From assembly GCA_964571465.1 (NCBI GenBank), contig CAZNAR010000004.1, positions 20,942 to 84,941 on the forward strand: a stretch of 64,000 bases of DNA, written 5' to 3'. Below, piece by piece: positions 544 to 31,421 of the stretch; within the stretch, counting starts at the first letter, position 1; the number at the start of each line of letters is the position of its first letter. This stretch comes from an uncultured bacterium. GTDB lineage: Bacteria; Chlamydiota; Chlamydiia; Chlamydiales; Rhabdochlamydiaceae. Both the position numbers and the translations under genes were made by a program. A model generated the notes under the pieces. That model had not been told where the DNA came from, did not search any database, and was given only the letters and a program-made list of their open reading frames with translations.

Positions 544-1649
544 AAAGAATTCTCTCCCTCATTTGGAAAGAGCTTCTGACTGTACTGCGGGATAGAAAAG
601 TCCGTCTCTCCATCTTACTTCCACCGATCATTCAGCTCTTTGTCTTCACCTACGCCGCGACTCTCGATGTAAAAAATGTTCCGATTGGGATTTTAAACCG
701 AGACAATGGGGAGCAAGCATTTCTGCTGATCGAGAGGTTTTATGGCACCAAGATTTTCAATAATCACATCATCTTTCTGAAGGGCGTCCAAGAAATCGGA
801 CCTTTTCTTGACCATCAAAAGGGGGTCATGGTCGTTTCGATTGATGAACAATTTTCACGCAACTTAGATGCAGGAAAACCAGCAACGGTGCAACTCATTT
901 TGGATGGACGTAAATCCAACACCGCTCAAATTGTTGCAGGTTACACGAGCCAAATTATTAATCATTTTAACAACGACTATACTGCAGCAGCAGAACTCAA
1001 GGTTCAAAATGTCGAGCTCGTCCCCCGCACTTGGTTCAATCCCAATACCTTGTACTACTGGTATAATATCCCCTGCCTTGTCGGTGTTTTATCGATGCTC
1101 ATTTGCCTTGTTGTGACAACTCAATCAGTTGCTCGTGAGAGAGAACTAGGGACCTTCGACCAGCTTCTGGTCTCACCCCTAATGCCTATTGAGATCCTGA
1201 TTGGGAAAATTATACCTGGAGTCATCATCGGCTTTATGGAGGGAATATTTATGCTTACAATCGGTACGCTAGTGCTAGGCGTCCCCTTCACAGGCTCCCT
1301 TCTTCTTTATTTCTTAAGTCTCTTTGTTTTTGTCTCATCCATCAGCGGAGTCGGTCTTTTCATCTCGTCCCTTTCGCTGACGCAACAACAAGCGATGCTC
1401 GGTACGTTTGTTTTTATGACACCTTCTGTCTTGATGTCAGGCTTTGCCACCCCGATTGAAAATATGCCTGAGTGGCTTCAACCATTTACCTATTTGATCC
1501 CTCTCAGATATATGTTGGTTATATCAAAAGGTCTTTTCCTGAAGGCGATGCCAGCCAGAATTGTTTTAGAGAATGTCTGGCCCCTTTTGATCATTGGATG
1601 CGTTAACTTTATGGGAGCCGCATGGTTTTTCCGAAGAAGACTTCAGTAG
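540..1649 (+). CDS. ABC-2 type transporter permease (YbhR-like)
   Basis: 369 aa. It has an N-terminal TM, a large loop and then 5 TMs, with the ARERELGTFDQLLVSP motif typical of ABC-2 permeases. It is a paralogue of the preceding gene. Confidence 0.85.
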   Translation: MKRILSLIWKELLTVLRDRKVRLSILLPPIIQLFVFTYAATLDVKNVPIGILNRDNGEQAFLLIERFYGTKIFNNHIIFLKGVQEIGPFLDHQKGVMVVSIDEQFSRNLDAGKPATVQLILDGRKSNTAQIVAGYTSQIINHFNNDYTAAAELKVQNVELVPRTWFNPNTLYYWYNIPCLVGVLSMLICLVVTTQSVARERELGTFDQLLVSPLMPIEILIGKIIPGVIIGFMEGIFMLTIGTLVLGVPFTGSLLLYFLSLFVFVSSISGVGLFISSLSLTQQQAMLGTFVFMTPSVLMSGFATPIENMPEWLQPFTYLIPLRYMLVISKGLFLKAMPARIVLENVWPLLIIGCVNFMGAAWFFRRRLQ

Positions 1650-3085
1650 TTCTTTTATTCCTGGCAGGATGTGCCGTGGGGCCTAACTACAAAGAACCTG
1701 AAAATAAGGTCTCAAACACTTGGTCGGCGCCTGCAGAAGTTTCAAACGACACACCCCTAGTGGAATGGTGGAAAGTTTTTAACGACGACCTGCTCAACAA
1801 ATATATTGCTAAAGCTGTTGAATATAACAACGACGTCTTGACGGCCGAATCGAATATCTTGCTAGCACGGGCGATGAGACAAGTCGCTGCCTCGTCTTTT
1901 TTTCCTCAAATTGGCGCCGACGTGAATGCGACGAAAACCTACTTCAGTAAAAATGGACCGATCTTTCAATCAGATCCCAGTCTTGGAAAACTCCCAGGAA
2001 CCGTTTCACCGGCCACAGGCCTTTCATTCAGCCCTCAAACGCCTCAGATTCAACATCTCTACAACGCTCTCTTTGACGCTTCATGGGAAATTGATCTTTT
2101 TGGAAAAACACGTCGCACCGTTGAAGCTGCAAATGCCCTCATCGGGCGGGCGATTGAACTTAAGAATGATACGTTGATCACCGTGATGGCAGAAATTGCA
2201 CGTCATTACCTTGAGCTGCGCAGTCTCCAAAGAAAAACAGAGCTGACCGAAGAAAATATACGGTTGCTTGAGCAAAAAATGTCGATTGTCCAGCAACAAC
2301 TCGATAGTGGCTATGTCAGTTGTGTCAGTTACGAATATATCCATGCCCAGCTCGCCACTGAAAAAGCACTCCTGCCCGATATCCAAGCTCAAACGTACCG
2401 GGCCATCTACACCCTCTCGATTTTAACTGGCGATGTTCCTGAAACACTTGTCGAAGAGCTTCTAATCCCCCGTGCTCTTCCCCACGTTCCTGAAACCGTT
2501 GCAGTAGGACTCCGCTCTGATCTTCTCCGTAGACGCCCAGATGTTCGAAAAGTCGAACGGGAACTGGCCGCTGCCACTGCCGCCATTGGAATCGCCGTTG
2601 CTTCATTTTTCCCGTCCATTACGTTGTTTGGAGATGGAGGATTTCAATCACTTGCGATCAAAAACCTTTTCAATATGGGAAGTAAAACCTGGGCGCTCGG
2701 CGGTGACATCCTCATGCCGATCTTCCAAGGCGGTCGCCTCATGGGAAACTTAAAAGCTGCACGTGCAGAAACGGCCGCGACAGCTCATCGGTACCAACAA
2801 ACGGTTCTCAGTGCGCTTGAAGAAACTGAAACAGCTCTCATGACCTACACGCAAGCTCTCAAGACGTGCCTTGAGAAAAAAGAGGCTACTGAAAAATACC
2901 ACAACCTTGTTCACTTAAACCGAGAAAGACATCTGCACGGGCTAGTTGCACTGACCGATTTAATTGACACCGAGCGAGAACTCAACGCCTCTGAGCAATC
3001 TCTCCTTGAAAGCGATACTGCTTCTCTTCTTGATCTGGTCGCACTTTACAAATCCTTGGGTGGCGGATGGGAAATAAATAATTAA
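1622..3085 (+). CDS. Outer-membrane efflux lipoprotein, NodT/OprM (OMF) family
   Basis: Lipobox LLFLAGC followed by AVGPNYKEP, the hallmark N-terminus of NodT-family factors. It also has two TolC-like repeats and a C-terminal LYKSLGGGW motif. Confidence 0.85.
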   Translation: MVFPKKTSVVLLFLAGCAVGPNYKEPENKVSNTWSAPAEVSNDTPLVEWWKVFNDDLLNKYIAKAVEYNNDVLTAESNILLARAMRQVAASSFFPQIGADVNATKTYFSKNGPIFQSDPSLGKLPGTVSPATGLSFSPQTPQIQHLYNALFDASWEIDLFGKTRRTVEAANALIGRAIELKNDTLITVMAEIARHYLELRSLQRKTELTEENIRLLEQKMSIVQQQLDSGYVSCVSYEYIHAQLATEKALLPDIQAQTYRAIYTLSILTGDVPETLVEELLIPRALPHVPETVAVGLRSDLLRRRPDVRKVERELAAATAAIGIAVASFFPSITLFGDGGFQSLAIKNLFNMGSKTWALGGDILMPIFQGGRLMGNLKAARAETAATAHRYQQTVLSALEETETALMTYTQALKTCLEKKEATEKYHNLVHLNRERHLHGLVALTDLIDTERELNASEQSLLESDTASLLDLVALYKSLGGGWEINN

Positions 3086-24809: not shown

Positions 24810-25540
24810 AAAAAATTGCTTGCGTCATTCCAGCTCGGCTAAATTCCAGCCGCTTCCCCCGAAAAATCTTGGCATCTCTCCATGGGAAACCTCTTCTAGA
24901 ATGGGTCTGGGAAGCCGCCATGAAAGTTCCTCTCTTCAGCTCAGTAACGATTGCCCTTGATTCAGAAGAGACTGCAGAGGTTGTACGATCCTTCGGAGGT
25001 CATTACCAAATGACAGCGCTGGAGTGCCCCAATGGAACCATGAGACTGTGTGATCTGATTAAAAGATATCCTACTGAAGGTGATATCTTTGTATGCTGGC
25101 AAGGGGATGAACCTTTTTTACATGAAGAGATGATTCGAGAGCTTCTGCAGACCGCAGGACAAGATGAAGCCGACATTTGGACTTTAAAAAAGAAGATCAC
25201 CGATCTCAAAATTGCAGCTTCGCCCCATACATGTAAGGTTGTGACAGACAGCCAAGGGTATGCCCTTTACTTCTCACGCAGCTTGATCCCTTTTCATCGA
25301 GATACGACTCCGACTTACTACGAAAAACATATCGGGATCTACGCTTATTCACGGGCAGCCCTCGAGAAAATTTCAACTCTTCCAATGAGCGCTTTATGTG
25401 AGTATGAACAACTTGAAATGCTCAACTTTATGTACCACGGCCTTAAGATCCGGGTCCATGAAACAGTGCACGAAGGTTTTGGAGTTGATATTCCAGAGCA
25501 TCTCGAAGAAGCTTACCGACGTGTTTTAGTCAGAAAATAG
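24806..25540 (+). CDS. kdsB: 3-deoxy-manno-octulosonate cytidylyltransferase (CMP-Kdo synthetase)
   Basis: The N-terminus MKKIACVIPARLNSSRFPRKIL..GKPLL is diagnostic. The ATG at 24806 forms an ATGA overlap with the rfbB stop. Confidence 0.9.
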   Translation: MKKIACVIPARLNSSRFPRKILASLHGKPLLEWVWEAAMKVPLFSSVTIALDSEETAEVVRSFGGHYQMTALECPNGTMRLCDLIKRYPTEGDIFVCWQGDEPFLHEEMIRELLQTAGQDEADIWTLKKKITDLKIAASPHTCKVVTDSQGYALYFSRSLIPFHRDTTPTYYEKHIGIYAYSRAALEKISTLPMSALCEYEQLEMLNFMYHGLKIRVHETVHEGFGVDIPEHLEEAYRRVLVRK

Positions 25541-25833
25541 CTGTGTTTCTTATTAACCTTTAAAAGGTAATGTTCGTCGTCTTTGCCTTGAGTTATGGTC
25601 ACCTTAACCCCACCCACTTTAAGTTCTTCTTTTTGGAGATTTTCTTCTTTGTAACACTCTTCAATGGCCTTCATATAGGCTCGATCAAAGTCTAAAGTCT
25701 TTTGAATCTTTTTTAAGAATTTTCTCTCGTTGCCGAGCACTCGAAATGCTCCATGAATTGATAGATAGGCAAATCCACCGACTAAGATGATGGCAATTAA
25801 GACTTCGAGCAGAAAAAAAGAACGTCTTTTCAT
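25513..25833 (-). CDS. Small protein with a prepilin/pseudopilin-type N-terminus
   Basis: MKRRS-FFLLEVLIAIILVGG has a basic leader, then F(+1) and E(+5), followed by a hydrophobic helix. This is the class III signal-peptide pattern, although Ser replaces the usual Gly at -1. Confidence 0.45.
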   Translation of the reverse strand: MKRRSFFLLEVLIAIILVGGFAYLSIHGAFRVLGNERKFLKKIQKTLDFDRAYMKAIEECYKEENLQKEELKVGGVKVTITQGKDDEHYLLKVNKKHSYFLTKTRR

Positions 25834-26570
25834 GAGACAATTTTAAGTGGTTTAAAATCGATATAGTCAGCCGCCGTTAGGAGGTACTGGATTCCACCTT
25901 CCGTCCCAAACATTTTAGCATCTTTCTTAAGATTATGGAGATGACCAAAGAGACAGATATTCACCCCATACTCTTTCAAAATTGCTGCCGTCCTTGAAGG
26001 ACGCAAATCGGCACTGATGGGGGGATAGTGCGTCATGGCAATTTTGAGCTTTGCTTGAGGGTTCATCTGCTTAAGACTCATTCTTAACCGTTCAAGTTCC
26101 CTTTCAAAGATCGCAGAGTCATTGACAACTTCTACTTTTTCGGTTGCTTTTGGGTTCTCTTGAAAATGAACATAAGCGTTAAAATTGTATTCTGCTGTGT
26201 CCCAAAGTCTCGTTCCCCCGATGGCAATCTCATTCCAATGGAACGCATTATTCTGTATAAATTGGATGGAGGAAGGAAACTTTTCTGCCATTTTCTTCGG
26301 TGAACTCCACCAATAATCATGGTTACCGCGGATCATGACCTTAGTTCCTGGGAGCTGATGGATCCATTCCAAATCGACCAACGCTTCATCGAGCCTCAGG
26401 GCCCATGAGATATCCCCTGGTAGCAGAACGAGGTCTGAAGGGTCAACACACTCTTTCCAATACTGCTCCATCCTCTCCATATATCTTTCCCAGGCAGGGC
26501 CGAAAATCGCCATGTTTTTGGAAGGAACACTTTTTGCTAAATGGAGATCGGCAAGTGCCCAGACAGTCAT
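25830..26570 (-). CDS. Calcineurin-like metallophosphoesterase
   Basis: The five phosphoesterase blocks are present: ADLHL, GDISWA, GNHDYW, MTHYPP and GHLHN. Confidence 0.8.
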   Translation of the reverse strand: MTVWALADLHLAKSVPSKNMAIFGPAWERYMERMEQYWKECVDPSDLVLLPGDISWALRLDEALVDLEWIHQLPGTKVMIRGNHDYWWSSPKKMAEKFPSSIQFIQNNAFHWNEIAIGGTRLWDTAEYNFNAYVHFQENPKATEKVEVVNDSAIFERELERLRMSLKQMNPQAKLKIAMTHYPPISADLRPSRTAAILKEYGVNICLFGHLHNLKKDAKMFGTEGGIQYLLTAADYIDFKPLKIVS

Positions 26571-26573
26571 AGG

Positions 26574-27938
26574 TCAACCTAACTCTAGCTTAGCTGCTTG
26601 AGGCTGCCAATCCCCTGTCTGCCAACGTTTTTGTAGGACTCGCTTAAACAAGACACTTGTTGTGACTATGGTAGAGAAAAAGACAATATACCAGAATTTA
26701 TCAGCGCCTACCTCAAAGACCACCATCAAAAGATAAGTTGTGAACGAGCTTACAATCCAAAAAAGAGAGTAATAAAATGATAAAAACCTCGTGTCACGTG
26801 ATGCAACAATTAAAGAAAGAGGAATCACACTGACCCCATACCCTAAAAGGGCAAGCCAAAGGGAAGGTATAATGGAGTGCATGGCTGCTAACGACTCATT
26901 TGCAAAAGGTGTCCCTTTGAAACATAACGTTAAAACTTCAGGAAAGAAAAAGAAAGGAATACATAACAAAAGTGCATAGGAGAACATGATAAACAATCCA
27001 TTAGAAACAATTTTCCAAATTGCATCACTTTGCTTTTGCCCAATTTGAGTGGCTACGAGTGTGACCATGGATTGAAAAAGAGCATCTGCAAAAAATGTAA
27101 AAAAGTAAAAAACAGTTACACCGATCGAATAAATAAGTAGATGCAACTCTGACTTAATTGTCATTGTGCGGGAAACTATACTCCAATCGATGAAACAGAA
27201 AATAGCACCTAGGGCACGGAAAAGGCCCGGTTTAATATAATGGGCAAACAAGAGCGGTTGAAAACGGAAATCCCTGGTGCAGTAGGTTTGATGGTTGTAA
27301 TAGCGTAAGAATAGGAAACCCAGAACCACACAGATGAAACCTTGTGAGATGACTTTCCCTAACGAAGCTCCCAATGTCCCTAGCGCAGGGATATAAGCAT
27401 TTCCAAAAATTAAGATATAATCTAAAGCTATATTTAATAGACAACCGCTCAATGTGAGGAAAACAATTAAAGCCGTCTTTCCTCTTCCAATATAAAAAGC
27501 TGATAAAGCACCCGCAAGTGGGAATAAAAAATTAAACCAACAAAGAAGGTAAAAATATCCTCCCTCAGTTTGTGCAATCAACGTGTTATGGTAAAAGAGA
27601 TGCTCAAGCGTAAATCCTAGAGGAGGGACAATGAAAGCCGTTCCCAGAGAAAACCAAATAAGTTGCCAAGTACAAGGTCCTATCTGACGTGGCTGATTGG
27701 ACCCATGGAAAAGGCCCACGAACGTTTGCCCTCCAATGATAACCGCCAAAGTAGAAAACTGGAAAACACGCGATAGAAAAAAGCCATTCAGGCTCCCGGC
27801 TAAGGCGTTTTCAGAGTATTGTGCTAGAAAAATACGTTCAATATAAGCAGTAAGGCTCGTTCCAAGCAGGAAGAGCAATACAGGAAAGAAAAGCTTACAG
27901 AACGTCTTTAAACCTTGCAGATTCAAGCTCTTACACAC
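26574..27938 (-). CDS. Polytopic membrane protein, MOP-superfamily-like (MATE/Wzx/MurJ type)
   Basis: 454 aa with about 12 predicted TMs arranged as two halves. The family assignment is tentative and based on topology and size only. Confidence 0.45.
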   Translation of the reverse strand: MCKSLNLQGLKTFCKLFFPVLLFLLGTSLTAYIERIFLAQYSENALAGSLNGFFLSRVFQFSTLAVIIGGQTFVGLFHGSNQPRQIGPCTWQLIWFSLGTAFIVPPLGFTLEHLFYHNTLIAQTEGGYFYLLCWFNFLFPLAGALSAFYIGRGKTALIVFLTLSGCLLNIALDYILIFGNAYIPALGTLGASLGKVISQGFICVVLGFLFLRYYNHQTYCTRDFRFQPLLFAHYIKPGLFRALGAIFCFIDWSIVSRTMTIKSELHLLIYSIGVTVFYFFTFFADALFQSMVTLVATQIGQKQSDAIWKIVSNGLFIMFSYALLLCIPFFFFPEVLTLCFKGTPFANESLAAMHSIIPSLWLALLGYGVSVIPLSLIVASRDTRFLSFYYSLFWIVSSFTTYLLMVVFEVGADKFWYIVFFSTIVTTSVLFKRVLQKRWQTGDWQPQAAKLELG

Positions 27939-28296
27939 TAATCATTGGGACAAGTGCTATACAGTCGGCTTCCTCTGCGTGCATAATCTCAGGAATAAAT
28001 CCTTTTAATGTTGGAGCAAAACGTGGAAACCCTTGTCTGTAAAACCACTGTTTAATCACTGCGTTAACTGTAAAAGGTATGTGCGTAAAAGAACATTCGT
28101 CCTTAACATAAGTTAAGTAGAAATGCCCTTCTTTTTCACCTTGTCTTAACAAGTAGGTCATATCTGATTTACCTCTTAAGATAATTTCAGCTTCTGTTCC
28201 TGTTAAGTTTCCATACCATGCGATATGGTGTGTAATCTCTTCGATTTTTTCATGCATAAAGTTGGGAGAACTATCTTCTACCCTTAATGTCATCAT
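27931..28296 (-). CDS. Stand-alone SH2-like domain protein (eukaryote-like)
   Basis: GGAGG lies 5 nt upstream of the ATGATG at 28296. The 121-aa product contains WYGNLTGTEAEIILRG..TYLLRQGEKEGHFYLTYV..FTHIPF. This parallels the SH2 layout W-Y-x-G-x-[IL]-[ST]-x-x-E-A-E-x-x-L, FL[VI]R-x-S (beta-B Arg), Y-x-L-[ST]-[VL] and beta-D His. Confidence 0.5.
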   Translation of the reverse strand: MMTLRVEDSSPNFMHEKIEEITHHIAWYGNLTGTEAEIILRGKSDMTYLLRQGEKEGHFYLTYVKDECSFTHIPFTVNAVIKQWFYRQGFPRFAPTLKGFIPEIMHAEEADCIALVPMISV

Positions 28297-28499
28297 AATA
28301 ACCTCCGCCGTTATGAAACAGTCTTCAAAAACCTTATCAAGGTTATTCAACCCCAAGAATTAGTGCAAACAAAAAAATAGAAAGGTGCAAAAAAGTCTAT
28401 TTTTGTCTTTTTTTACGACCAAACTAAGATATTTTTGCTTTCTTGAACGGAGTTGCTTTACGTTTAATAATCACTCTTTTATTTTGTTGAAGCAGAACT

Positions 28500-31421
28500 A
28501 TGGAAAATACGAAACAGAGCACCATTGAAAAGCATCTTGTACGGTTAACTGAACGATTTCCTAATTCGGTTGACTCGTCTATTTTAAGAGATCGGGATCG
28601 CTTCTTCTCTTATTACGATCCAGATTTTATCCATAATAGATCGACTCCTTACCTACTTCGTATTTTACTTTCCCAACACTTACAACGGAAAAAACTCCTG
28701 GGGAGCTCCTCTTTATTCCATCAAAACAGATCCATAGAGTTCCGAGTTATTCCAGGAAAAGTTCAATACCCTTTTGGCTCCAAAAACGTTGTTGGAATTT
28801 TGGTTCAAATTTCTCTGGCTGATCGGTATGAGCTTTTTGATGAAGAAAACTTTCAAAGAGGGGTTCATCGCCTTTTACCAAACCTTCATATGGTAAAAGG
28901 ATCTATTTATAAATTTAGAGACAATACCAATACCATTCAGACGTGGTATGCAGAGTTTGAAAAGACAGGGAATCAGTCGTTTACACTAGCAGAAACTTCC
29001 TTACTGAAAGCCTCCTTAGGTGAGGAACTGATTGAGAGGACTGAAAGGCTCGTCCCCTCTGTATTCAAAGTTCGAAACCAAGAAGAGGTTCTTCGTAACA
29101 TTTTAACACTGAGCCAAGAAATTGATCAGTTATCCGATCTTCCTCAGGTCATGATATCATTTGAAACACAGAATTCTGACGAGATTATTTTCACTGTCAT
29201 CTGTGTTCGTCCTGAAGATCAAATCTCCATTTCTCTTGAAAACTTGATCCAGCACGAGAGCGGCCTCTGCAGATGGATCTTAGAAAGAAAACAGGTTGTT
29301 AAATACTTTGAAAATCACCAACCCATTGTCGCCTATTTATTCCGCGCCCTATTGATTCCTGATGCAACAATATTAAGAAGTGACGGCTCTTTAAACTTCT
29401 TCGCTGCCAGACAAAAAATCGCTGCTTCCTTGAAGACAAATATCGGTGAATACCGTGACTTCAATGGAGGAATCTTAATTAAACAAGAAGAGACACTCTT
29501 AACTCTTCGAAGCGCTTTCCCCTTTCTATCTGCAGAACAGATCGAAAATATTTTCTACTCAATTACTCCGATTGAAATGCAAGCCATTTTACCAAGTGTG
29601 ACTTTGCAGGCCATGATTGATTTGACCTCTCAAACAGCGGAACTGGCACTTAACGATGCGCATGATTACAATCTCGTCTCAAGTTCAAAACCACCCTTTA
29701 ATATTGTTTTGCTAAGTGTTCCTCACGGCCCTCTCTATGAAAAGGCAAAAGACCACTTACAACTCATTGACTTTCCTGAAGAAATCCAAGCCTCCTTCTC
29801 ACTTGGCACGAAGAAAAATCATATTTTTGGATTTTTAATTCCTGTGAATCACAAAAAATTCAGCGAACGTTTCGTCGACTCTTTAGGCAATTTACTCTTC
29901 TATTGGTCGAACGAAGTGAAACAACTTAAAATTCTACGCCTTAGCCTAAGTACCCCTATTAACTCGTTAGATCCTCGCATCGGGGGTGATGCCATCTCAT
30001 CCATCTTCCTGAAGATGTTATTTGAAGGGCTCATGCGAATTGGACCTGATGGAAAGCTCCAGCAAGGAATTGCTGAAAGATACGAAATTTCAGACGATCT
30101 ACAGACCTACCTGTTCCATTTAAGGCCTTCTTATTGGTCGAACGGCGACCCTATTACAAGCCAAGACTTCGAATATGCATGGAAGAAGTCTCTCTCACCT
30201 CATTTTAAATCACCGTTCAACTACTGCCTATTCTGTATCAAAAATGCACAGCAAGCAAAACAAGGACTTATCCCCATTCAAGATGTGGGGATCAGCAGCA
30301 TCAACGAAAGACTCCTTAAAGTAGAACTCGCTTATATCACACCTCACTTCCTCGAATTACTGGCTCTTCCCATTTTCTCCCCTGTCCATCGCCTACATGA
30401 TATCAATGTTCCGAATTGGCCTTCGGAAGAAGGACACCGCTATGTGTGCAATGGAGCTTTCAGAATCGAAAAGAATCTTAAAGACAGTGGCCTGACAATG
30501 GTCAGAAATCCCGAGTATTGGGAAAAGGAAAAGATTTTCATCGACAGAGTCATCGTTGTACCAAGTTATCTCTCGCAAAGCCAAGAAGTCTTTTTGCAGA
30601 GCCAAATTCACTGGGTTGGGCATCCTCTGGGAACAGGCCTTACAAATTTAAAACCTGGACCGCAAGATACCATCATCCAATACCCAGATAGCGGTCTCTA
30701 TTGGTCCGTCTGCCAGACAAAACATCCGTTGCTTAAAAACAAAAAAATTAGACAAGCGTTAAGTTTTGCAACCGACCGGCAAGCTCTCTTGAACATTCTT
30801 CAATATAAAAATAACCCAGCTTTTTCCCCCATCCCCTCGATTCATAGTCAAATTGAGAGCGATCCTTATCCTTTTTCCCCTGAAAAAGCACGAAAATTAT
30901 GGGACGAAGGTCTTAGCGAACTTCAAATTTCACCCGACTCAGTCCCCTCGCTTGAGATCCTCTTTACGGTTCATACCCTGTTTGGAAAACAAACAGCCGA
31001 ATTTTTATGTCATTGTTGGAATAAGATTTTGGGGATCAATTGTCGCATACAAGGGTGTGATTTTAAAACTCTTTTAAATCGATTCTCAACGAAGAATTTC
31101 GAGATTGGTTTGATTCGATGGCTTCCTTGGGTGAATGACCCCTTCTACACTTTAAATGCTTTTATCAATCCAGAAAGTCCCTTTAGCATCGATTGTGATG
31201 TTGGTAAAAAGCTGATTCGGCTCATGACAACTGCTCAAATGGAAAAAAACGATTCCAAAAGACACGCCTCTGTTAAAGAGATCGAAAAAATGCTCGTTGA
31301 TGAGCAGCCTATAATCCCTCTTTTCCATACCTATTTCCAAGCTATGAAAAAGAAATCCCTTAAAATGCATCCTAATCACACATTGATGGATTTTAAATGG
31401 GCTCGATTAGAAGCTGAGTAA
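28500..31421 (+). CDS. Family-5 (OppA/DppA-like) solute-binding domain fused to a ~480-aa N-terminal domain of unknown function
   Basis: The C-terminal ~490 aa carry LRLSLSTPINSLDPR.., LFEGLMRIGPDGKL.., SNGDPITSQDFEYAWKK and similar motifs. The N-terminal half has no signal peptide, no lipobox and no motif I recognise. Confidence 0.75.
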   Translation: MENTKQSTIEKHLVRLTERFPNSVDSSILRDRDRFFSYYDPDFIHNRSTPYLLRILLSQHLQRKKLLGSSSLFHQNRSIEFRVIPGKVQYPFGSKNVVGILVQISLADRYELFDEENFQRGVHRLLPNLHMVKGSIYKFRDNTNTIQTWYAEFEKTGNQSFTLAETSLLKASLGEELIERTERLVPSVFKVRNQEEVLRNILTLSQEIDQLSDLPQVMISFETQNSDEIIFTVICVRPEDQISISLENLIQHESGLCRWILERKQVVKYFENHQPIVAYLFRALLIPDATILRSDGSLNFFAARQKIAASLKTNIGEYRDFNGGILIKQEETLLTLRSAFPFLSAEQIENIFYSITPIEMQAILPSVTLQAMIDLTSQTAELALNDAHDYNLVSSSKPPFNIVLLSVPHGPLYEKAKDHLQLIDFPEEIQASFSLGTKKNHIFGFLIPVNHKKFSERFVDSLGNLLFYWSNEVKQLKILRLSLSTPINSLDPRIGGDAISSIFLKMLFEGLMRIGPDGKLQQGIAERYEISDDLQTYLFHLRPSYWSNGDPITSQDFEYAWKKSLSPHFKSPFNYCLFCIKNAQQAKQGLIPIQDVGISSINERLLKVELAYITPHFLELLALPIFSPVHRLHDINVPNWPSEEGHRYVCNGAFRIEKNLKDSGLTMVRNPEYWEKEKIFIDRVIVVPSYLSQSQEVFLQSQIHWVGHPLGTGLTNLKPGPQDTIIQYPDSGLYWSVCQTKHPLLKNKKIRQALSFATDRQALLNILQYKNNPAFSPIPSIHSQIESDPYPFSPEKARKLWDEGLSELQISPDSVPSLEILFTVHTLFGKQTAEFLCHCWNKILGINCRIQGCDFKTLLNRFSTKNFEIGLIRWLPWVNDPFYTLNAFINPESPFSIDCDVGKKLIRLMTTAQMEKNDSKRHASVKEIEKMLVDEQPIIPLFHTYFQAMKKKSLKMHPNHTLMDFKWARLEAE

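Follow-up and report, generated by a model that had tools for sequence, protein, structure and literature searches.

A stand-alone SH2-fold protein with conserved gene partners in a chlamydia-like bacterium

In the one systematic survey that we found, confident bacterial SH2 domains were reported from Legionellales only (Kaneko et al. 2018, PMC6208348). The Legionella proteins are often multi-domain effectors, and owe their super-binding to a betaD6 Arg and to an alphaEF helix or EF loop (PMC6208348). Their phosphotyrosine (pTyr) pockets and those of eukaryotic SH2 domains fall into two classes, relying either on betaB5 and alphaA2 (Src type) or on betaB5 and betaD6 (SAP, LeSH type), with SAP coordinating phosphate through its betaB5 and betaD6 residues (Kaneko et al. 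2018, PMC6208348). Two candidates from uncultivated bacteria, K2BDF1 and K2EE31, did not bind pTyr peptides in the same study (PMC6208348). In the class I lanthipeptide cyclases NisC and MadC, an SH2-like element has been suggested to recognise either a partner enzyme or a peptide that is not phosphorylated (PMC9889658). Here, we describe a protein with an SH2 fold encoded at 27931..28296 (minus strand) in a 64,000-nucleotide stretch of DNA from an uncultured bacterium of the Rhabdochlamydiaceae (GenBank assembly GCA_964571465.1, contig CAZNAR010000004.1, positions 20,942 to 84,941 of the forward strand). This whole stretch is referred to as the window, and positions are given in it. The gene is found next to the same two partners in related bacteria, one encoding a long substrate-binding-protein homolog (SBPlong) and the other a MATE-family transporter (MatE), and we tentatively propose that the SH2 protein acts inside the bacterium, as a docking adaptor.

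SH2 identity, coding status and family

The open reading frame (ORF) at 27931..28296 contains 121 codons plus stop (protein MMTLRVEDSS...PMISV). A ribosome-binding site, GGAGGT (28301..28306 in plus-strand numbering, on the minus strand), lies 4 nt 5' of the ATG at 28296. The GGAGGT box and the ATG were kept in 11 of 11 orthologous loci, with a spacing of 4–5 nt, and the ortholog N-termini coincide with this ATG, placing the start at 28296. A 141-aa version beginning at TTG 28356, taken from a mechanical ORF list, was ruled out by the same observations. The strong ribosome-binding site assigned to the 121-aa product by an earlier reading of the window, made from the letters without database searches (the sequence-only reading), was thus borne out, and the peptide quoted there was found verbatim in the product. 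Pairwise dN/dS against orthologs was 0.08–0.24 (pairs with unsaturated dS), and no plus-strand ORF of ≥50 aa overlaps the gene. The gene is therefore real and under purifying selection. Recent horizontal transfer was considered and dropped, since its GC content is the same as that of the surroundings.

The sequence-only reading had described the product as SH2-like, from a set of motifs in register with Src. Pfam SH2 (PF00017) matched residues 28–75 of the window protein with 24.7 bits (gathering cutoff 21; E = 2.6e-5) over profile positions 3–51 of 77. The matches of a phmmer search against the PDB were nearly all SH2 domains (p85-alpha, ZAP-70, Vav, SOCS, SHP-1, SYK, Spt6), while no NCBIfam model was matched. 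With a profile of 105 family members, 85 PDB matches were obtained (best E = 4.8e-8), and all 60 of the 60 listed were SH2 proteins. The alignment of this profile to the SHP2 N-SH2 extends through alphaB, where 'L..LI..M' pairs with 'L.ELV.YY'. Pfam SH2 was matched individually (E < 0.01) by 47 of the 105 members, the best at 3.4e-9, and in the reverse direction the family profile recovered canonical multi-SH2 and SH2-phosphatase proteins. The register proposed earlier (W-Y-x-G, the E-A-E helix, LLRQGE equivalent to FLVRES, FYLTYV and the betaD His) agrees with the HMMER alignments to the p85-alpha cSH2 and to Pfam SH2.

An AlphaFold2 (AF2) model of the window protein, built on 25 orthologs, had a pLDDT of 88.6, a pTM of 0.80 and alpha-beta(5)-alpha topology. 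A central antiparallel sheet (betaB 47–52, betaC 58–65, betaD 69–78, betaE 83–88, betaF 90–94) lies between alphaA (33–40) and alphaB (97–105), and is preceded by an additional N-terminal helix (10–22). The first ~10 residues are disordered (pLDDT < 50) and variable, with no Sec signal. The best 50 Foldseek matches in the PDB were all SH2 structures (probability 1.0, TMq 0.51–0.71), led by SOCS2 and SOCS3 (TM 0.65–0.71) and followed by ZAP-70, SYK, SHP2, Spt6, PLC-gamma and SAP. Strands betaE and betaF mark Src-type SH2 domains as opposed to the STAT type, and their presence assigns the window protein to the former. Its pI is 5.6, within a family range of 5.0–6.5.

A chance resemblance, or an ORF that is not coding at all, could be argued from the modest single-sequence Pfam E-value and from the match covering profile positions 3–51 of 77 only. 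It is refuted by the profile-level and reciprocal matches, the confident model with SH2 matches only, the conserved ribosome-binding site, the purifying selection and the more than 130 homologous clusters described below, and we regard it as having next to no probability. The product of 27931..28296 is a genuine SH2-fold protein of the Src type and has no second domain, as the sequence-only reading had expected.

A word-indexed search with the window protein returned 24 close homologs of 116–134 aa. One of them is named 'SH2 domain-containing protein [Candidatus Rhabdochlamydia sp.]' by NCBI, and the complete genome of a member of the Rhabdochlamydiaceae that lives as a symbiont of Dictyostelium giganteum encodes a near-identical protein. 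An exhaustive HMMER search with the family profile over 1.84 billion cluster representatives (50% identity clusters) gave 163 clusters at E < 1e-3. Among the best 150 of these, 133 were proteins of 85–160 aa aligned almost end to end, and the remainder were canonical SH2 proteins or adhesins with MBG_2 repeats. The architecture is single-domain across the family, with a common pattern of H-x-A-W-[HY]-G ... T-Y-L-L-R-x-G-E ... Y-[YF]-L-S-[FY]-V in the N-terminal part, and H-x-P-F ... W-x-Y-R-N-G ... L-I-P-x-M-M-H-C-x4-C-x-P-L in the C-terminal part. By these searches, the window protein is a member of a large, old and divergent family of stand-alone SH2 proteins of ~120 aa, with at least ~130 clusters.

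Five proteins (P0036, P0119, P0141, P0163, P0168) were rejected as family members, being adhesins with MBG_2 (YGX-type) repeats and summed chance matches. Giant adhesins of this kind reach E = 6e-24 against the family profile through weak repeats at positions ~48–101, a pitfall for automated counts of the SH2 family. Two members, P0050 and P0053, have a hydrophobic, signal-peptide-like N-terminus in place of the N-terminal helix, and some lineages may thus export the protein via Sec.

Genome labels of family members were Rhabdochlamydiaceae, Parachlamydiales and Chlamydiae, together with two odd labels of metagenome-assembled genomes (Verrucomicrobia, Anaerolineae) that we suspect to be mis-binned contigs. 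The labelled and plausibly binned members thus all come from chlamydia-like bacteria, with labels covering few of the distant members, whose clusters are mostly metagenome-only. The scan of genome contigs used patterns of the window's clade, and family-wide distribution is not readable from it.

Automatic annotation pipelines already tag a few family members as SH2. We found no publication on SH2 domains encoded by chlamydia-like organisms, including Rhabdochlamydia, and neither 'SH2' nor 'PF00017' occurs in the supplementary files of two papers on chlamydial pangenomes. The family is thus apparently undescribed in the literature. What is new here is its size and age, the uniform stand-alone architecture, the fixed bacterial gene partners, and the occurrence of orthologs that retain the betaB5 Arg beside others that lack it.

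The phosphate pocket

The betaB5 Arg and the betaD His pointed out by the sequence-only reading are R51 (in LLRQGE) and H72 (betaD4). Both were invariant in the 25 orthologs of the window's clade, as were G53 and E54. The alphaA Arg is replaced by Gly, again as had been noted, and this residue (G33, alphaA2) was likewise invariant in the 25 orthologs, together with P74 at betaD6. In the wider family, betaB5 is Arg in 87 of 133 clusters (65%); the 35% without Arg have Ser (17), Thr (12), Trp (8), Gly (4) or other residues, and syntenic orthologs from other clades have Ser, Gly or Thr. The betaD4 position is His in 115 of 133 clusters. Among the 87 clusters with Arg at betaB5, alphaA2 is basic in 2 and betaD6 in 10.

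The window protein thus has no second basic phosphate ligand at either alphaA2 or betaD6. Its pocket would be a minimal one in which the anchor is kept, and high-affinity pTyr binding cannot be assumed.

The best-conserved residues across the family are H24, W27, L40, H72, W84, N88, H106, C107 and C112, and do not include R51. Four of them, H24, H106, C107 and C112 (HxAW ... MHC-x4-C-x-PL), are kept in most of the superfamily, a pattern suggestive of a metal or redox site. In the window's clade, C107 of the Cys motif has been lost (Ala, Gln, Thr, others).

Conserved gene partners and possible function

To compare gene neighbourhoods, every ORF of 26 related loci was scanned with the family profile and with the window's neighbour proteins; a metagenome locus search with the single protein P0201 yielded two loci. 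The SH2-like gene is present in one copy per locus, except in L021, where a tandem pair (1540..1929 and 2104..2433) lies between the SBP gene and MatE. An SBP_bac_5 gene adjoins the SH2-like gene in all loci with enough flank, and is of the long form wherever the flank allows this to be judged. MatE adjoins it in most loci, including the distant L017–L021 and L024–L026.

Three arrangements of the genes were found. In the window, L004–L009, L011 and L016, SBPlong is head-to-head with SH2 followed by MatE; in a variant of this order, MatE is missing or fragmentary (L010, L012–L015). In L017–L021 and L024, SBP is followed by SH2 on one strand and MatE is convergent, and L022 and L023 show SBP followed by SH2 with no MatE. 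In L025, SH2 is followed by MatE and SBPlong is convergent, and L026 is a short contig showing SH2 followed by MatE. In the second arrangement, all orthologs lack the betaB5 Arg (e.g. TYLLSEG, SYLLGLSE), while L025 and L026 keep both the Arg and the order of SH2 followed by MatE, as in the window. The sample is small, and this association of the betaB5 Arg with gene order is a lead only.

Between the window and L004, identity was 56% for SH2, 60% for SBPlong, 49% for MatE and 71% for KdsB, and between the window and L017–L020 it was 24% for SH2, 31–34% for SBPlong and 31% for MatE. The distant syntenic orthologs together showed 24–36%, 28–36% and 27–34%, respectively. From these comparisons, the divergence of SH2 appears to keep pace with that of its housekeeping neighbours. 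KdsB is not kept beside the module in the distant loci. Of the traits of an accessory effector, none of patchy distribution, rapid divergence or variable context was seen for the SH2 gene, which in these loci is single-copy except in L021 and has conserved partners.

In the window, MatE (26574..27938, minus strand, 454 aa) matches Pfam MatE, with TIGR00797 below cutoff. Its GTG start (27938) overlaps the 3' end of the SH2 gene by 8 nt, including the stop codon, so that the two genes are probably translationally coupled. No terminator was found between them. Alignments of MatE orthologs begin at residue 5 of the long MatE ORF.

SBPlong (28500..31421, plus strand, 973 aa; 973–1164 aa across loci) consists of ~470 N-terminal aa with ACT-like modules and a C-terminal SBP_bac_5 domain (520–889, OppA-like). 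Neither a signal peptide nor a transmembrane segment was found in SBPlong or in the SH2 protein, while the neighbouring SBP paralog of SBPlong bears a lipoprotein signal, MKLRYWFVTVSLLFLCGC. The N-terminal 480 aa have no Pfam family and no sequence relative in the PDB. The AF2 model of this region (pLDDT 81, pTM 0.50) shows three tandem beta-beta-alpha-beta-beta-alpha modules. Its best Foldseek match was the N-terminal part of Mycobacterium smegmatis L-GDH180 (E = 5.9e-8, probability 1.0), with a TM of just 0.22 owing to a different domain arrangement, and the next was PheRS-beta. We take the matched part of the mycobacterial 180-kDa glutamate dehydrogenase to be its ACT-like regulatory region. 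As modelled, SBPlong looks like a cytoplasmic ligand-sensing protein, with ACT-like modules and a peptide-binding-protein domain. The fusion of ACT-like sensors to a 'periplasmic binding protein' that presumably resides in the cytoplasm is in itself unusual.

Paralogs of the SBPlong N-domain, of 645–711 aa and without an SBP Pfam match, occur in L027 (7001..9136) and L028 (6517..8454). The L027 gene overlaps the end of an SBP_bac_5 gene, indicating a split or reordered architecture. Neither paralog has an SH2-like neighbour; a linkage of SH2 to the ACT-like N-domain alone was therefore dropped, and the linkage is specific to SBPlong orthologs.

Adjacency that survives rearrangement over large divergence is a standard signature of functional coupling, and suggests that SH2, SBPlong and MatE are functionally coupled. 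We hypothesize that the SH2 protein is an intrabacterial docking adaptor in this conserved three-gene module, a reading that we favor tentatively, as plausible but somewhat short of probable. With its peptide-binding face it would grip a stretch of SBPlong or MatE in extended conformation, in the cytoplasm, and docking would couple the sensing of a ligand by SBPlong, possibly amino acids or peptides, to the MATE inner-membrane transporter. In the window's clade, where R51 and H72 are strictly kept, the docked motif would probably be anionic, either a phospho-residue or an acidic residue, held by these two side chains. In other clades, where the betaB5 Arg is replaced, docking would be phospho-independent.

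Chlamydiae possess Ser/Thr kinases such as PknD. A bolder proposal, which we consider rather doubtful, is that SH2 was domesticated long ago by chlamydiae and that, in the Arg-retaining clades, the adaptor of the sensor/SH2/MATE module reads a phospho-residue made by a bacterial kinase. If true, this would make it the first signalling step based on SH2 to take place within a bacterium. Phosphorylation of tyrosine is not known to be an established means of signalling within chlamydiae.

Several points weigh against a role inside the bacterium. Gene neighbourhood is circumstantial evidence for an interaction, and chlamydial genomes are fairly syntenic anyway. SBPlong could itself be secreted, and the hydrophobic N-terminal segments of P0050 and P0053 indicate that the family is not cytoplasmic throughout. 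This housekeeping region is not free of effector genes: 8 kb from the SH2 gene lies a gene for a 412-aa protein with a eukaryote-type ubiquitin C-terminal hydrolase (UCH) domain (35978..37216, plus strand, Pfam E = 3.2e-24), which from its sequence is likely a deubiquitinase effector. Type III secretion systems are universal among chlamydiae, and the disordered, variable N-terminus without a Sec signal is compatible with a type III secretion signal. The strict conservation of R51 and H72 in the 25 orthologs is the pattern expected of a true phospho-reader. The conserved R51 and H72 and the N-terminus would also fit an SH2 protein that is secreted, probably by type III secretion, and that acts as a free single-SH2 decoy or adaptor in the cytosol of the host, in the manner of SAP/SH2D1A. 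There it would occupy pTyr or other phospho-motifs, either on signalling proteins of an amoebal or arthropod host or on chlamydial effectors phosphorylated at tyrosine. Such a function would suit a domain of eukaryotic type whose bacterial carrier is an obligate intracellular one, and which is nearest in sequence to p85, SHP2 and ZAP-70, with the size and architecture of stand-alone SH2 adaptors (SAP has 128 aa). The Legionella SH2 proteins, mostly translocated effectors (8 of the 10 tested; PMC6208348), provide a precedent. Against secretion stand the adjacency to SBPlong and MatE through three arrangements, the overlap of the MatE start with the SH2 stop, the housekeeping-like rate and the single copy in all loci except L021. 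Moreover, the betaB5 Arg is missing in 35% of the family clusters, syntenic orthologs included, and there is no base at alphaA2 or betaD6, whereas both pocket classes of Kaneko et al. have one or the other; their two bacterial candidates from outside Legionella, which may or may not be members of this family, did not bind pTyr peptides. We therefore consider a secreted, host-targeting SH2 protein to be on the unlikely side, though it is the strongest alternative to a docking adaptor. The sequence-only reading had proposed a candidate effector directed at host signalling. The SH2 fold in a chlamydia-like bacterium stands, while the effector part is weakened by context, rate, Arg-less orthologs and the missing base. 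The same reading had found the position beside a membrane-protein gene odd for an effector, and this context proved to be the most informative feature.

The evidence on the pocket also bears on whether the fold has been kept as a scaffold, with phospho-recognition disused even in the window's clade. The protein would then be a structural subunit, or a small redox- or metal-dependent protein acting through its HxAW, WxYRNG and MHC....CxPL surfaces. This would account for the absence of R51 from the best-conserved residues (H24, W27, L40, H72, W84, N88, H106, C107, C112), the repeated loss of the betaB5 Arg and the lack of auxiliary basic residues in the pocket. In the window's clade, however, R51, G53 and E54 are invariant while C107 is lost, so that it is the pocket that is conserved there and not the Cys motif. 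We judge a degenerate scaffold to be improbable, and it overlaps with a docking adaptor rather than excluding one. The constant adjacency to a signal-less SBPlong could also be that of a chaperone and its client, as for class I type III secretion chaperones encoded beside their effectors, and a protein of 121 aa from an acidic family (pI 5.0–6.5) would be of the right kind. Its sequence and fold are nonetheless those of SH2 and not of CesT/SycE (alpha-beta-beta-beta-alpha-beta-beta-alpha), with SH2 structures filling the best 50 Foldseek matches, and SBPlong looks like a ligand sensor and not an effector. A chaperone is accordingly very improbable.

The SH2 gene is the first of a same-strand run, as the sequence-only reading had it when placing the gene at the head of a membrane-protein operon: SH2, MatE, a metallophosphoesterase and a 106-aa ORF are packed on the minus strand. 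The calcineurin-like metallophosphoesterase (25830..26570, minus strand, 246 aa) is the third gene and the 106-aa ORF (25513..25833, minus strand) the last, and they follow MatE at spacings of −4 to +3 nt. The metallophosphoesterase follows MatE in L001 and L004–L009, is found further downstream in L010–L012, L014 and L016, and is absent from the distant L017–L025; it is thus linked within the window's clade only. The 106-aa ORF overlaps the metallophosphoesterase stop, has orthologs in L005–L008, and matched no Pfam or NCBIfam family above threshold. It has one hydrophobic N-terminal segment, MKRRSFFLLEVLIAIILVGG, which in our judgement resembles the N-terminal motif of prepilins and pseudopilins.

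The SH2 and SBPlong genes are separated by a divergent intergenic region of 203 bp (28297..28499). It contains an inverted repeat, AACCTT-atc-AAGGTT (28330..28344), ~35 nt 5' of the SH2 start, and pairing is kept by compensatory changes in L006 (ATTCTT..AAGAAT) and L007 (AATCTT..AAGATT). The repeat could be a hairpin in the 5' untranslated region or an operator in a divergent promoter region. Scanning for promoters and terminators around the SH2 gene gave nothing beyond shuffle expectation.

An ordinary OppA-like lipoprotein gene comes after SBPlong. The wider region is housekeeping in character (PBP, TyrP, KdsB, LipA, Lpd, SecA, Psd), with the UCH-domain gene, which sits between Lpd/LipA and SecA, as the sole exception. 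The flanks of L018 and L019, from the Arg-less clade, contain a D-Ala-D-Ala ligase, two further SBP_bac_5 genes, a bifunctional GshF-like glutamate-cysteine ligase/ATP-grasp protein and an outer-membrane efflux protein, which hints at a peptide or glutathione theme.

Significance and comparison with known SH2 systems

With this family, a second, unrelated group of intracellular bacteria besides Legionellales carries SH2 domains. If the proteins are secreted, they would form a phylum-wide class of minimal phospho-signalling decoys against amoebal and arthropod hosts. Should their role instead be intrabacterial, as suggested by the neighbourhood, SH2 would no longer be viewed as a signalling device of eukaryotes alone, and a function would be found for the signal-less ACT-SBP5 protein and for the MATE protein encoded beside it, both uncharacterised in chlamydiae. 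Orthologs with and without the betaB5 Arg at one and the same locus provide a natural experiment on the SH2 fold without its phosphate anchor.

The best sequence and profile matches of the window protein are eukaryotic Src-type SH2 domains (p85-alpha cSH2, SHP2, ZAP-70/SYK, PLC-gamma, RasGAP). It shares with them the alphaA-betaB-betaC-betaD-betaE-betaF-alphaB topology, the FLVR-type Arg at betaB5 and the His at betaD4, at only 10–25% identity in structural alignments. Unlike them, it is bacterial and stands alone, has Gly at alphaA2 and Pro at betaD6, leaving one basic phosphate ligand, and carries the family motifs HxAW(H/Y)G, WxYRNG and a C-terminal H-C-x4-C-x-P. The SH2 domains of SOCS2, SOCS3 and SOCS4 are the top Foldseek matches (query-normalised TM 0.65–0.71, ~115–120 residues aligned), and in our own judgement the extra N-terminal helix (10–22) resembles the extended-SH2 helix of SOCS. 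Unlike SOCS proteins, the window protein has no SOCS box or kinase-inhibitory region, and identity is ~10–14%.

SAP/SH2D1A and EAT-2, which are free single-SH2 adaptors, are the obvious model if the window protein works as a decoy or adaptor. The window protein appears analogous in having, within ~120–130 aa, little beyond one SH2 domain, but differs from SAP in lacking a basic residue at betaD6.

Like LeSH, RavO and DoSH of Legionella, the window protein is an SH2 fold in an intracellular bacterium with a betaB5 Arg (in the window's clade) and an alphaA2 Arg that is not used. Unlike the Legionella SH2 proteins, it has Pro at betaD6, a single domain, and vertical conservation in a bacterial gene module. 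There were no Legionella chains among the PDB sequence matches listed, all of which were eukaryotic, and on all these grounds the window protein is not a member of the Legionella SH2 groups.

The SH2-like element of NisC and MadC is a precedent, by analogy, for phospho-independent use of an SH2 fold inside bacteria. That element, identified from structure alone and with a role that is still putative, is inserted in an enzyme, whereas the window's family consists of stand-alone proteins and matches PF00017 by sequence.

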